NCBI GenBank assembly: GCA_963807635.1
Contig: CAWEDJ010000021.1
Location: forward strand, 1-31,361
DNA: 31,361 bases
Origin: an uncultured cyanobacterium
Lineage (GTDB): Bacteria > Cyanobacteriota > Cyanobacteriia > Cyanobacteriales > Microcystaceae
Direction of reading: 5' to 3'
The translations under genes and the position numbers were made by a program. Below the pieces are notes generated by a model that ran no database searches, had not been told where the DNA came from, and saw only the letters and a program-made list of their open reading frames with translations. Shown one piece after another: positions 25,472-31,361 of this stretch. Within the stretch, counting starts at the first letter, position 1, and each line of letters opens with the position of its first letter.

Positions 25472-26192
25472 TTATCGATTTTTCAGCGATCGCATTCCCC
25501 AGAAAATCAAATTAGGATCAAATTTGCAATCATTAGCGATATCAGGGTATATTTCCTTTAAATAAGATAATAATCTTTCCCCATCTCCCCCTGTAAAAAT
25601 AATCTTACTATCAGGAAATTGCTTTAACCAATCTTCTATAAAACCCATAATTCCTGATAATAAACTATAAATAATTCCACTCGCGATCGCGTCTTCCGTA
25701 TTCATTGCCCAACGATTCGGTAAAGATTGGGGTAAATTTAAAAAATTTAAACGAGGTAAAACGGCAGTTTTTAGGGATAAAGATTGAAATTGCAGACCCA
25801 AGCCAGGTAAGATAGCTCCTCCGATCAATTGCCTATGCTGATTAACGCCTGTGAAAGTTAACGCTGTTCCCCCATCGATCACTAAACTGGGAAATCCATA
25901 ATTTTCACCACTACCTAAAACCGCTAAAGCGCGATTGATTCCCAAAGTGTGATAGAGATTTTTTAGAGGAATATCGGTCAATTGAAGTAATTTTAAATAG
26001 GGATAATCTAGAAAAAGTTTGGTTTCTCTCAGGGACAACAGACGCTAAATAGAGAGGAATATTCGCAGGAAAATTAGTAATCGAATCATGATTAGTCTGC
26101 CAAGTTTTAATTAAAATATTCTGCTCAAAATAAGCCCAATGTAAATGGGAATTACCAATCACTAATGCTAACCATTTAGACGACACTTCCAT
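25472..26192 (-). CDS. coaX: Type III pantothenate kinase (frameshift near 26030)
   Basis: LVIGNSHLHW in one frame. LGINRAL, VIDGGTALT, GGAILPG and TGGDG in the other. Confidence 0.9.
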
Positions 26193-26285
26193 AAAGATTC
26201 GGTTATTTCCCTAATTTCTTGCTTAACATAACGTCTATGATCGCGTTAGGGTAAGAGAAATATGATCTTAACGGCGATCGCAACT

Positions 26286-28374
26286 ATGACTACTTTAACC
26301 GTATCAAACAATCCGCTCCTGATTGGGAAAGGACTTCCCCCTTTTGATCAAATCCAAGCAGAACACATCATTCCTGCGATCACTCAATTTTTAGCGGAAT
26401 TAGAAACCGAATTAACGAATTTAGAAAAAAATGTCGTTCCCACTTGGTCGGGATTGGTAGAACCTTTGACCCTGATAGAAGAACGTTTAAATTGGAGTTG
26501 GGGAATCGTCGGTCATTTAATGGGGGTAAATAATAGCCCTGAATTGCGGGAAGCCTACGAAGCCGTTCAGCCCCAGGTTGTTCAATTTTATAGCCGACTG
26601 AGCCAGAGTCAACCGATTTACGAAGCTTTTAAAAGCCTACAAGTTGGCGGTGAGTGGTCGAGTTTAGATTTGCCCAAAAACGCATCGTCGAAACCAATCT
26701 CCGTGAAGCAGAATTATCGGGCGTGGGTTTAAGAGGCACAGAAAAAGAGCAATTTAATACAATTCAATTAGAATTAGCGGAATTAACCACAAAATTCTCG
26801 AATAATCTGCTAGATGCTACTAAAGCTTTTGAACTTAAATTAACCCAATCCCAGGAAATTGAGGGATTGCCAACGAGTTTACTGAGTTTAGCCGCGCAGA
26901 CAGCCCGTGAAAAGGGAGAAACCGAAGCTACCGCAGAAAATGGCCCTTGGGTGATTACGTTGAATTATCCCAGCTTTGTTCCCTTCATGAAATACAGTAC
27001 TCAACGCCCATTGCGAGAAAAACTGTATAAAGCTTTTATTACTCGCGCTTCCACTGGAGAATGGGATAATAATCCTTTGATTGAGCGTATTTTCGTAGTT
27101 CGTCAGGAAACAGATCCCAGATATTAGGGTATCAGACCTACGCAGAAGTCAGTTTGGCGCGAAAAATGGCTCCTAGCGTGGAAGCAGTGGAAAAACTGTT
27201 AGAAGAATTGCGTCAAGTGAGTTATACCGCGGCTCTACAAGATTTAGCTCATCTTAAAAGCCTTTGCCAAGACCGATGACCTGAAACATTGGGATATTTC
27301 CTATTGGTCAGAACAGCAACGAGAAGCAAATTTGATTTCGATGCTGGAAGAGTTGCGTCCTTATTTCCCTTTACCTCAAGTTTTAGAGGGTTTATTTACC
27401 CTAGCTCAACGGATTTTTTCGGTGACGATTACCCCCGCCGATGGACAAGCTCCCGTTTGGCATCCAGATGTACGTTATTTTCAGGTCGATAATGAATCGG
27501 GAGACGCGATCGCCTATTTTTATCTCGATCCCTACAGTCGCCCTGGGATCAAAACGGGGAGGAGCCTGGATGAGATGATTGCATTCGATCGGGCAAAGAT
27601 TGAAGAGAATGGCGAAATTATCACCCGTTTACCCGTTGCCTATTTGATCTGTAATCAAACTCCCCCAGTTGGATGACAACCGAGCTTGATGACCTTTGAT
27701 GAAGTGACGAACTCTTTCATGAGTTTGGTCACGGTATTCAGCATATGCTGACCCAGGTAGATTACAGTGGTGCTGCAGGGATCAATAATGTGGAATGGGA
27801 TGCGGTGGAGTTGCCCAGTCAATTTATGGAAAATTGGTGTTATGACCGCGTCGACATTATTTGGTATGGCTAAACATTATGAAACAGGGGAAACCTTACC
27901 CGAACTGATTATCAAAAATTACTCGCTGCTCGCAATTATCTGAGTGGTTCGGGCATGTTGCGTCAAATTAATCTTAGTTTATTAGATTTGGAATTACATC
28001 ACCGTTATCAACCGAATGGCGCAGAAACGATTGCCGATATTCGGAACCGTTTAGCGAAAACTACCACTGTTTTAACACCCTTACCAGAAGATGCTTTCCT
28101 GTGTTCCTTTGGTCATATTTTTGCGGGGGGATATGCGGCGGGTTATTACAGTTATAAATGGGCTGAAGTGCTTAGTGCCGATGCGTTTGCGGCATTTGAG
28201 GAAGCAGGTTTGGACAATGAAAATGCGGTAATGGAAATTGGTAAACGTTTTCGGGATACGGTGTTAGCTTTGGGGGGAAGTGTGCATCCGATGGAGGTGT
28301 TCAAATCTTTCCGAGGACGGGAACCTGAAACGGAGCCTTTATTGAGACATAATGGGTTATTTGTTGCGGTTTAG
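26286..28374 (+). CDS. prlC: Oligopeptidase A (M3 family), many indels
   Basis: NNPLL..LPPF start, HEFGH at 27718-27732, [10 protein letters not shown] and [16 protein letters not shown]. Spread over several frames. Confidence 0.93.
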
Positions 28375-28385
28375 TCTCTTTAAAA

Positions 28386-28452
28386 CTAGGATGGGTTAGA
28401 TAGCGATTATTTAATACAATAAGCATTAATTTATTGTCTATCGTAACCCACC
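28386..28452. repeat. Nested hairpin, REP-like element between convergent genes
   Basis: Outer tgggtta-gatag...ctatc-g-taaccca and inner acaataa...ttattgt, preceded by ctagg. Confidence 0.55.
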
Positions 28453-28458
28453 AAAATT

Positions 28459-28665
28459 CTACTTCTGCTGTCGTAAAATGACTTGAATTAATCCCGTTAA
28501 TCCATTACAAACCAGTAAAAGCAAAATCGCGATCGCCAAAATAATTGCTGTCGGTGAATCTCCATTTTTGATAATGGTTTGGGGATCAATGGGGTTAATC
28601 GGTTGGGTCGGTTGGATCTGAACGTTATTCATCGGTGTTAACCTTAATTGGGATATTTTCATCAT
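28459..28665 (-). CDS. Small single-pass membrane peptide (alternative start 28632)
   Basis: Pro/Gln-rich N-terminus, then GDSPTAIILAIAILLLLV hydrophobic helix and a basic tail. Confidence 0.65.
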   Translation of the reverse strand: MMKISQLRLTPMNNVQIQPTQPINPIDPQTIIKNGDSPTAIILAIAILLLLVCNGLTGLIQVILRQQK

Positions 28666-28703
28666 GGATTTATACGTTGTTCCATGAATTTATTCCTTTA
28701 TCC

Positions 28704-28760
28704 TACGAAACCCTTATGCAGCAGTCATTACGGAAAAGTACGAAAAAGTAAGGTTATGAT
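28704..28760. promoter_or_regulatory. Tandem direct repeats in the divergent promoter region (candidate operator)
   Basis: tacggaaaag (28729), tacgaaaaag (28739), taagg (28749), plus tacgaaa (28704). A TATGAT -10-like hexamer follows at 28755. Confidence 0.5.
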
Positions 28761-28799
28761 AAAGTTAGTTTTTAGCTGATAGTTTCAACGATTAAAACC

Positions 28800-31203
28800 A
28801 TGACCCCAGAAGAAGCTATTAATATTGCTGATGAGGCTTTGAAGATTTACTCAGGTAAAATTTTGACCGATATGCAACGGCTAATTTTGCAAGAATCTTT
28901 CGCTGGCAAGGGTTACGAGGAAATGATAGGCTATGATCCTCAGCACTTTAAAAATGAAGGTGGCGCACTTTGGAAGTTATTATCAGAAGCTTTAGGAGAA
29001 AAAGTTAGCAAAAAAAGTTTTAAAGGTGCGTTAGAAAAACGACTAAAATCTAGTCAATTTGCACTGTTTCCCCCAGAACCAACAATTTATAAGTCTGAAA
29101 AATGGGTAGGTCGATCGCCACTTATCGAGAAGTTATTAAATGAATTACAAAAAAAGACCCGTATTGTCTGGTTAACGGGACTTTCGGGCATTGGTAAAAC
29201 GACATTAGGGGAATGTATCGCGGTTAAAGCTTGGGAAAATAATCCATCTTTTCAGTGGATACATCTAGAAATTTCAACTAGTCAATTGACTGATTTTGCT
29301 ACAGGAGCGAGAGAAATTCTGAGTCAATTAGGCGAAAAAGATTTCGATCAGCAGGAAATGAATGATCCTAAATGGTTAAGCGATCGCCTGTTGCAAAAAT
29401 TACAGTCTTCTTTTTATTGGTTACAAATTGACGCACTAGAAAAATTGATTTCAGCAAATGAATTTATTGATAGTTATTGGCTGACTTTTTTAGAAAGTTG
29501 TTTAAATACGAATCATTTTTCCAGTCGTTTATTATTAACTTCTCAGGTTTTGCCCAACAGTCTGATTAATTGGTGCGATCGTTTTTCTAATATTTGGCAT
29601 CAAGAAACGTTAAAAGGGCTAGGAAATGAAGAATCTGAACAATACTTTGCTAAAAATGGCATTGTAATTGATGAGTTTAATCAAGATATTCTAACTGGTA
29701 TCAGTCAAACTTACGAAGGCCATCCTCTAGTTTTGCAAGTAATTACGGGAGAAATTTCACAGGTTTATCAAGGAGATGTAACGGCTTATTGGAAAGTTAA
29801 TCAAGCAGAATTTGAGCAGGTTTCACGGGAATTAAATTCGTCTCGTTTAACGCAAACTGATTATAACGAGCAATTAGCCCGTCGAGTTAGGGAAAGAGTC
29901 AAAAAGTCGTTAGAACAATTACCTAAAAAAGCGAATCGCGTTAATATGTTGCAGTGCGGTTTATCGTCGTCCAGTTCTTAAAAAGTTTTGGTTAGGATTA
30001 ATAACAGAATATTCTCCTAAAGAGCAATTAGAAGCTTATCGAATATTAGGCGATCGCGCTTTAATTGAAACAGAAAAAAATCTGATTCGGCAACATAATT
30101 TGGTACGAGATATTGCCTATGATTGGTTACGCAAAGATGAGGTTATTTGGAAAGCCGCAGAGGTTAAAGCGGCAGAGTTATGGCTAAGTGAGTATCAGTC
30201 TGAAGAGAATGCTGAAAATTTACAGAAAGTACGAGGTTATTTAGAGGCTTTTTATCATTATTGCAATGCTGAAGACTGGACTTTGGCAATCAAATTGTTT
30301 AATATTCCCTATCAAACATCACAAGATAAATTATCCGTTCATAAATTAATTACTTGGGGATTTTACCGAGAAACAATAAATATTTGTAAAAAGCTAATAG
30401 ATAAAGATAAATCTGAATCAGGAATGAGAATTAATTATTTTTGTCTACGTATGATAGGAGTTTCTTATTCATATATAGGTAATTATTTGGATGCAATAAA
30501 TAACTTACTAAAAAGTTTAAATATTGTACAAAAAGAATCATTTAGCTTGATAAAAGAAATTGATATAATACGTTGTTTAGCATATTTTAATTGTAATATT
30601 GAAAACTATGAAAATGCTACTTTTTGGAATTACTTATGCTTTTTAAAGTCTAGTAAAATTGATTACAATGAAGGATTATCCTTATTCTTAGCAATAGAAG
30701 GAACTATCTTTTTCAAAAAACAAGAGTACTATGAAGCTCTTGTTCGTTACAAAAAATCTTTACTAAGTTTGCATGGTCGAGGAATAAAAAATTTAACAAG
30801 TCTTTTAGGAAATCTAGGGGTTTGTTTTGTGAAAACACAAGACTATGACCAAGCCTTACATTGTTTTCAAAATAGTCTTTTGATGGTGAATTTTTTAAAA
30901 GATGATTTTATCCAAGCAAATATGTTGCAGAATTTAGGAATAACTAAAAGCTATCTTGAAAATAATATAGATGCTTTAAGTGATTTAAAAGAAGCCTTGA
31001 GAATTTTTAAGAAAAGAAATCTACTTAATGGACAAGCAGAAGTCCTAAGAAATATTGCGGCACTATATCTTAATACGAAACAACCTAAATTCGCACGACA
31101 ACATTGCGAACAAGCTCTAAAAATTGCCACAGAGTTAGGTATTCCATTAGCTCAAGAATGTCAAGAATTATTATCAAACATTGAGGAGGCAGAAAATTGT
31201 TGA
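28800..31203 (+). CDS. HTH-like + STAND/NB-ARC NTPase + TPR protein (~800 aa, one +1 frameshift near 29935)
   Basis: N-domain LTDMQRLIL..GKGYEEM..LWKLLSEALGEKVSK, then WVGR, Walker A GLSGIGKT, LLLTS and GHPLVL. Removing one A from gcgaatcgc joins it in frame (AIALICCSAVYRRP...QHNLVRD) to the TPR ORF. Confidence 0.88.
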
Positions 31204-31361
31204 TAGTTTGGACAATCCATGCAGAAGAACGACAACAACAATGGCAACAACGGCTAGAAATTACAAAGGAGGAAGTTGAAGCCGTATTAACTAATCCACA
31301 GCAAATTGTTACTGAAAATCAAGTATTTGTTGCCCAATCTAGACGAGGAAAAGGTTTACTT
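31200..31361 (+). CDS. DUF4258-like (RelE-fold) putative toxin, 3'-truncated by the window
   Basis: TTG overlaps the upstream TGA, with RBS gaggagg at 31183. Reads MIVWTIHAEERQQQW...ITKEEVEAVLTNP and is open to the window end. Confidence 0.7.
   Translation, partial: MIVWTIHAEERQQQWQQRLEITKEEVEAVLTNPQQIVTENQVFVAQSRRGKGLL

Follow-up and report, generated by a model that had tools for sequence, protein, structure and literature searches.

STAND proteins work through nucleotide exchange and oligomerisation, and MalT is named as a STAND transcription activator in the available text of PMC10936776. The same text describes AfsR, in which an N-terminal DNA-binding domain is followed by a nucleotide-binding oligomerisation domain and tetratricopeptide repeats (TPRs), and which activates a weak promoter via 11-bp direct repeats at the -35 region. 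For bacterial NLR-like proteins, helix-turn-helix (HTH) 'adaptors' have been proposed to trigger a transcriptional response, and the available text of this proposal names no target gene or operator (10.1101/2022.07.19.500537). Here we describe a cassette of two divergent genes close to the end of a contig from an uncultured cyanobacterium of the Microcystaceae (CAWEDJ010000021.1, assembly GCA_963807635.1, positions 1 to 31,361; these 31,361 nucleotides are called the window below), where a gene for an HTH-NB-ARC-TPR protein stands head-to-head with a gene for a small membrane peptide. No paper on this cassette was found in the literature searched; the supplements of 10.1101/2022.07.19.500537, the source data of PMC7159879 and subscription papers lie outside that scope and may list such architectures. 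The cassette is real and conserved, and apparently undescribed. By sequence comparison it would be a variant form of STAND activator of transcription. Its putative target is a small membrane peptide, its candidate operator is private to it, and its head and sensor are plug-in blocks. What appears to be new is the HTH-type-specific tandem repeats in the intergenic DNA and the joint exchange of promoter and HTH, with the TPR sensor exchanged separately.

In its N-terminal DNA-binding head, its NTPase and TPRs, its repeats of about one helical turn (10-11 bp) at a weak promoter and its small-protein target, the cassette resembles AfsR and afsS so far as the source describes them; afsS is likewise known as a small-protein target. 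It differs from them in the head, which is of LuxR type (PF26355) or XRE type and not a SARP. A large SARP domain (OmpR-like DNA-binding part plus BTA) is absent, since the 88-aa head has no such Pfam match and the NTPase follows at once. Moreover, the cassette repeats lie upstream of the -35 and abut it, whereas the afs box overlaps the -35 and spacer in the available description, and the cassette target is divergent and membrane-spanning, with head plus operator and sensor exchangeable. MalT and the LAL regulators carry a LuxR-type HTH at the C-terminus and use multiple boxes. The cassette shares with them a STAND protein with a LuxR-type HTH, but this HTH is N-terminal, in the slot which effectors occupy in NLRs; the C-terminus is made of TPRs and the sensor is hypervariable. 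With Avs and bNACHT proteins, as far as the sources cover them, the cassette has in common the order of effector, STAND and repeat sensor, a variable N-terminal slot and abundance in cyanobacteria. It differs from them in that the output would be a separately encoded, induced peptide, and no PADLOC model matches. No fused enzymatic or pore-forming effector domain was found in the STAND protein, in agreement with the statement in the original prediction, made from the letters of the window, that a nuclease, TIR or SIR2 effector is missing.

The main parts of the two genes are the following.

28459..28632, minus strand: single-pass membrane peptide gene, 57 aa; an in-frame upstream start at 28665 gives 68 aa
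28800..29063, plus strand: N-terminal HTH, PF26355 (HTH_VMAP-M9), assigned to the LuxR/NarL/GerE-type fold from family labels, model and structure matches
29124..29837, plus strand: NB-ARC STAND NTPase with Walker A, Walker B and GxP motifs; Gln replaces the usual sensor-1 Arg

Peptide and HTH genes were found together in most loci. A first set held 49 distinct peptide loci, from which the window's own locus, three duplicates and four weak profile hits had been left out, and one of which lacked upstream DNA; 43 of the 48 assessable loci face a gene with an N-terminal HTH, a count that takes in two loci where toxin-antitoxin genes intervene and several whose partner is frameshifted or truncated. 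The five misses were L034 (peptide with stops), L052, L053, L065 and L068 (promoter and TPR remnant only). Among 29 new loci chosen by peptide profile, 20 face an HTH gene, two face a STAND gene whose HTH is truncated or undisplayed, and seven face neither; four of these seven are 5'-truncated peptide fragments. Pooling of both sets gives a linkage of 63/77 loci, with HTH status taken from Pfam or profile matches for LuxR-type and XRE-type heads and from inspection for other classes. The regions 3' of the HTH varied widely and comprised NB-ARC-TPR, NACHT, NTPase-WD40, GUN4, TRADD-N with pentapeptide repeats, or TPRs alone. Since the part after the HTH varies, the constant unit, as judged from these loci, is the peptide plus the HTH. 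The original prediction had made its case hang on co-occurrence of the peptide with STAND genes, and this divergent linkage is indeed conserved across cyanobacterial loci; the pairing has to be restated, because the peptide tracks the HTH and not the STAND module, as the GUN4, pentapeptide, NACHT and WD40 partners show. A required third gene was considered as well and rejected, because neighbours differ between loci.

The peptide has 54 close homologues and 511 homologue clusters with a wider profile, and among the best 120 of the 511 clusters, which were listed, all taxa are cyanobacterial. On the ratio of nonsynonymous to synonymous polymorphism (pN/pS; pooled 0.35 over 10 pairs, 9/10 below 0.6 and one at 1.29), the peptide is under purifying selection and is a real gene family. 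It could still be argued that the adjacency is due to chance or that the small open reading frame (ORF) is not a gene, as short hydrophobic ORFs are common and a generic promoter scan was empty on the peptide strand; against the number of clusters, the pN/pS and the linkage at 63/77 loci this explanation is practically negligible, and chance adjacency was rejected on the conservation data. Members of the family are 53-89 aa long. The start at 28632 is the one that most homologues share, and the length is most likely 57 residues on this comparison. A polar N-terminus rich in Q, P and T precedes an S-P-T-A-I-I-L core and a basic C-tail, with one hydrophobic helix at about residues 28-49. Because the net charge is <=0 before the helix and positive after it (+2 to +4, in 16/16 sequences), an N-out/C-in topology is predicted. 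No Pfam or PADLOC family matched the peptide, the Atlas gave unnamed cyanobacterial clusters only, and no relatives were found in the viral contigs or plasmid records searched. Its distribution is patchy, with 21/401 genomes in the phylum sample, 33/251 in the order and 17/90 in a second order; the HTH family is present in 115/151 cyanobacterial genomes.

Several variants of the peptide locus were seen on the way. The peptide gene is duplicated in tandem at L076, L078 and L080. At L052:1912-3099 a short peptide variant faces a gene which by eye looks related to sigma factors and has no Pfam match, and at L005 and L094 the HTH genes, with a matching motif, are faced by small membrane-type ORFs that differ from the peptide family or are only distantly like it. 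The cassette at L071 is typically cyanobacterial though its bin is labelled Saccharibacteria, and the contig is probably mis-binned.

The DNA between the two genes contains the candidate control elements.

28700..28705, minus strand: predicted -10 of the peptide promoter, TAGGAT, from comparison of class-A loci
28723..28728, minus strand: ATGACT, predicted -35 of the peptide promoter, with 17 bp between it and the -10; this hexamer served as anchor
28728..28753, no strand assigned: three imperfect direct repeats with a 10-11 bp period, abutting the -35, predicted HTH operator
28755..28760, plus strand: TATGAT, candidate -10 of a promoter for the STAND gene itself; the -35 region of this promoter would be overlapped by the operator

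The peptide promoter is predicted to be weak, sigma70-like and conserved in the window's subfamily. The generic scan gave no promoter on the peptide strand, where an 8-of-12 site fell below threshold. However, A at position 2 and T at position 6 of the -10 occur at the same offset in 11/11 anchored class-A loci (13 examined), and the majority fraction of this -10-like hexamer, which was not anchored, is 0.75 vs 0.53-0.57 in the flanks; the conservation of the -35 hexamer, as the anchor, is partly by construction.

Each HTH class was paired with its own tandem repeat in the intergenic DNA. The XRE-type motif was derived at the peptide loci. In loci chosen for their HTH alone it occurred 72 times, compared with 4.0 times in mononucleotide shuffles (at most 10) and 2 times in coding DNA, mostly with spacings of 12 or 9 bp. 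It was present in at least two copies in 14/27 de-duplicated loci vs 1/27 for the other HTH class, with kin among these loci that are not independent. The repeat block of the window's subfamily was read from five loci and recurred in six new ones. A 19-bp operator pattern has a single exact site in genome G000; there is one site per genome in 3/3 genomes with this HTH-STAND gene and none in 2/2 with TIR- or trypsin-headed STANDs. When up to 3 mismatches were allowed in G000, the pattern gave 28 sites vs 63 for a control pattern, and hence no wider regulon is evident. For other HTH classes the motif was kept in new loci by inspection, including L005 with its different small membrane ORF. Because the repeats also sit over the likely STAND promoter, they suggest that the STAND gene may regulate itself.

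Similar arrangements were observed outside the peptide loci. At L086-L115, genes for exported or surface proteins (DUF4347, DUF7453, DUF4394, lipase) often lie opposite XRE-type HTH genes accompanied by runs of up to 10 TGAGC-type repeats, and these loci may represent a general cyanobacterial regulator-operator family. PF26355 subfamilies seem to be paired with different repeats, GTCGG-type vs AAAGTA-type (L012, L016, L133; L118, L122, L123), which hints at a possible recognition code. The HTH gene at L123 faces a PemK/MazF toxin gene.

Comparison with close relatives divides the cassette into conserved and replaced parts.

28666..29072, no strand assigned: exchangeable block 1, made up of promoter/operator and HTH; L075 matches on both sides of it but not within it at the DNA level
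29935..30279, plus strand: conserved helical region with MHD-like motif, 3' of the NTPase, from alignment
30280..31077, plus strand: exchangeable block 2, hypervariable TPR sensor, replaced in relatives
31078..31203, plus strand: last TPR and C-terminal helix, conserved in alignment and in the contigs of relatives

Between the window and L075, DNA matches cover 28385-28665 (peptide) and 29073-30279 (NTPase) and resume after 31077, with none over 28666-29072 and 30280-31077, and the first exchange has its breakpoints at the start of the peptide and directly ahead of the NTPase. The exchange joints were reproduced in metagenome contigs, one of which (an X3 contig) joins 28665 to 29095. Contigs from 3 runs have other sequence in place of the TPR block, amounting to 791-919 letters in three contigs. 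Among proteins with 88-93% identical NTPases, the TPRs are 9-35% identical (best local alignment) and the heads belong to PF26355 or to one of two XRE-type families; the LuxR-type head and the XRE-type head compared with it are unrelated. Within the same NTPase clade, the N-terminal slot may hold a PNP-like effector (P0148, 61% NTPase identity), with TIR or trypsin further out, and that of a close relative can hold PF19954, which we take to be an effector-associated domain. On these alignments, promoter and HTH are swapped together and the TPR sensor separately from them, while the NTPase stays near-identical.

This exchange bears on what the repeats control. If they served only for autorepression of the STAND gene, the peptide would be a co-inherited passenger with its own constitutive promoter; the position of the repeats just upstream of the candidate STAND -10 fits this, and upstream DNA would travel with the HTH through physical linkage alone. 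However, the geometry from repeat to hexamer on the peptide side is fixed across two orders, the peptide has persisted while the entire promoter and HTH were repeatedly replaced, and many orphan peptides are truncated, which makes a pure autorepressor a rather remote alternative. Control of the peptide promoter by the regulator, with NTPase switching and the HTH acting on the repeats, is in our estimate quite probable.

The exchange also bears on a second role for the peptide, as a partner of its own regulator, either as the precursor of a pheromone which the TPRs sense or as a membrane tether by which a feedback loop would inhibit the STAND protein. In Rgg/SHP (RRNPP) systems, the available text describes an HTH with peptide-binding repeats and no NTPase, and an SHP precursor of about 22-23 aa (PMC13361665). 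An N-terminal-HTH regulator divergent from a small hydrophobic peptide gene is the same layout, and an oligopeptidase gene adjoins the cassette in this genus. The likeness to Rgg/SHP, within what that source covers, is in layout only; the cassette differs by its NTPase and by a peptide of 53-89 aa with a full membrane helix that does not co-vary with the sensor. The peptide remains 72-95% identical while TPRs are replaced, and its partners have unrelated sensors (WD40, GUN4, pentapeptide) and HTHs of unrelated folds, so that no common peptide-binding surface is evident; moreover, among the loci scanned, the oligopeptidase neighbour was confined to the genus. We therefore consider a partner peptide improbable.

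The proposed N-terminal HTH-like domain of the original prediction stood up to structure prediction. Modelling indicates that the head is a LuxR-type DNA-binding fold: the model of residues 1-88, built on 50 sequences, has a predicted local distance difference test score (pLDDT) of 89, and its top 10 matches among 48,161 chains were all of LuxR/NarL/GerE type, with Z 6.1-6.7 and a root-mean-square deviation of 2.0-2.7 over 60-63 aa. These Z values are individually modest, and they agree mutually and with an HHalign match of 74% to a GerE-matching HTH. The PF26355 assignment comes from precomputed labels on homologues with HTHs 82-93% identical, and the top three Atlas clusters score 0.92. The window's own HTH domain had no match in the local Pfam copy, Foldseek found no match for the model, a sequence comparison of the N-terminal half with solved structures gave no match, and HTH profiles gave weak or repeat-driven matches only against the PDB; among these, a match to a Cpl-7-like lysozyme was rejected as an artefact of summed repeats. 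A single-sequence model of the 393-aa half (pLDDT 37) was unusable. PF26355 takes its name from the VMAP ternary conflict systems, which place it in a cyanobacterial conflict context in the available text (PMC7159879). The cassette shares this family label of the N-terminal HTH, and differs in that no MoxR-vWA-VMAP operon was found at the locus, whose downstream side is partly seen. The NB-ARC-like NTPase with C-terminal TPRs was also confirmed (PF00931, 37.3 bits with a cut-off of 23.5; TPR_12, 73.5 bits), and Walker A/B, GxP and MHD-like motifs followed by a repeat sensor place the protein in the STAND NB-ARC class; a first scan of genome contigs gave no match for the STAND half.

The surroundings of the cassette vary as well. 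Neighbours are different in each genome, and insertion sequence, relaxase and toxin-antitoxin genes are among them. A relaxase (L063:1494-2429) and a ParA gene (L060:8589-9263) lie near two cassettes, which suggests mobile elements. At three loci a Gp49/RelE-like toxin with an addiction-module antidote, or the antidote alone, is located between the operator and an XRE-headed STAND gene (L002:700-1309, L053:169-799, L074), and because of this position these genes would share the regulator's operon.

In the reading that we favour, the cassette would be a mobile two-gene unit in which the HTH-NB-ARC-TPR protein likely serves as a one-component, ligand-gated activator of the facing peptide gene and the peptide is likely the effector of an infection or damage response; we hold this reading tentatively, as one whose chances come close to even. 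A defence role is favoured because the sensor is hypervariable, the head sits in the slot of immune effectors, and the patchy cassette lies beside differing genes. Once control of the peptide promoter by the regulator is granted, a harmful defence output is somewhat on the likely side. A more specific form of the same reading, put forward with greater reserve, is a transcription-coupled NLR immunity of cyanobacteria, in which hypervariable TPRs would license the HTH to induce a membrane-killing peptide as the counterpart of a fused TIR, protease or PNP domain, while matched HTH-operator blocks (of at least two unrelated folds) and sensors swap around a fixed NTPase and peptide. According to this model, the variable TPRs would bind a foreign or damage signal; the NTPase would exchange nucleotide and oligomerise, as is general STAND behaviour; several HTH heads would then settle on the 10-11 bp repeats next to the -35 and bring RNA polymerase to the weak promoter; and the peptide would insert in the membrane N-out/C-in and arrest or kill the cell.

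With the same regulator-promoter logic, the peptide may instead be a non-toxic output, for example a small modulator in the membrane that acts on a transporter, a kinase or the photosynthetic apparatus, or an envelope or stress signal, as one of many targets of cyanobacterial one-component HTH-STAND regulators. Elsewhere, genes of an exported, surface or housekeeping type stand opposite these HTH families, the sensors include GUN4 and pentapeptide repeats, the context is not that of a defence island, and the peptide occurs in tandem copies, all of which would suit such a role. Sensor hypervariability, immune effector domains in the same slot and patchiness fit conflict better, and we regard the non-toxic output as unlikely, while giving it real weight.

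Several further observations weigh against the favoured reading. PADLOC returned generic TPR matches only (P0055, P0061) and no named system, and the neighbourhoods are not defence islands as judged from the 97/178 neighbour ORFs that were compared with NCBIfam. Peptide partners of the HTH-GUN4 and HTH-pentapeptide kinds have no NTPase, and HTH classes D, E, G and H were assigned by eye. A clear family peptide occurs at 3/30 loci with the XRE-type head, a fourth (L094) being a distant look-alike, and at 0/29 loci with the broad PF26355 head; other genes (DUF4347, lipase, ComFB, PLDc_N, vWA) are the more frequent partners of these HTH families. The class-A motif is not enriched across broad PF26355 (at least two copies in 1-2 of 27), and on this count it marks the window's subfamily only and not the broad family. 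L117, with an HTH 71% identical in a 101-aa ORF, has neither peptide nor motif. On the supporting side, a reciprocal test in 90 genomes of another order gave 12 loci matching the STAND half at E<=1e-40, where PF26355-headed STANDs had the peptide and the same intergenic block at 7/7 loci, one of which (L157) was the search centre and several of which are kin, and TIR- or trypsin-headed STANDs had neither at any of the other 5 loci. These controls are more distant (36-39% identity), and thus absence of the peptide is confounded with distance. It also counts against the favoured reading that the window's copy of the STAND gene is frameshifted as assembled.

The last point concerns the contig itself. 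The source genome (4.0 Mb) is in 107 contigs, and every named close homologue is cyanobacterial. The divergent ORF of 57-68 aa and the short intergenic region are present as first described: the small minus-strand ORF (28459-28665) lies opposite the STAND start at 28800, with a gap of 134 or 167 bp by the peptide start chosen (28665 or 28632). The single STAND ORF of about 800 aa is not present in the window, where the gene is split into a 393-aa frame (28800-29981, NB-ARC) and a 413-aa stop-to-stop frame (29962-31203, TPRs).

29934, plus strand: one-base frameshift relative to L002, L003 and L075, probably an assembly error

The gene is in two frames because of one extra base at about 29934, which is absent from L002, L003 and L075 and from 5 metagenome contigs in 3/4 runs (the fourth has no coverage there). 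Intact homologues are 781-801 aa long and 89-91% identical over the N-terminal half. The upstream oligopeptidase gene has many single-base indels vs L075; at 25472-28374, the pantothenate kinase is split between two frames and oligopeptidase A is broken into four or more pieces. Because of these adjoining errors, the frameshift is read as probably an assembly error in error-rich sequence at the contig end. An M3 peptidase gene and a DUF4258 gene are the neighbours, and the contig stops 158 bp downstream, so that this side is partly seen. The DUF4258 gene (31197-31361) overlaps the STAND stop, is kept in a relative (L075:91-336) and is possibly a toxin-antitoxin component. Taken as a claim on layout, the original prediction was partly right: the arrangement is real, and it proved to be conserved. 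The prediction overlooked the frameshift, the operator repeats and the two exchangeable blocks; its sensor/regulator reading is well supported by the genomics, that is, by the divergent linkage, the LuxR-type HTH and the HTH-specific repeats.

HTH-headed STANDs are very common in cyanobacteria, and the cassette gives them a candidate target, operator and promoter. If the peptide is toxic, it would represent a new mode of action for bacterial NLRs and a new family of small effectors. Even without toxicity, the repeats would supply operators for several uncharacterised families of cyanobacterial regulators, together with naturally orthogonal sensor-operator parts. Moreover, if the plug-in reading is true, the exchanged blocks would form a natural library of HTH-operator pairs.

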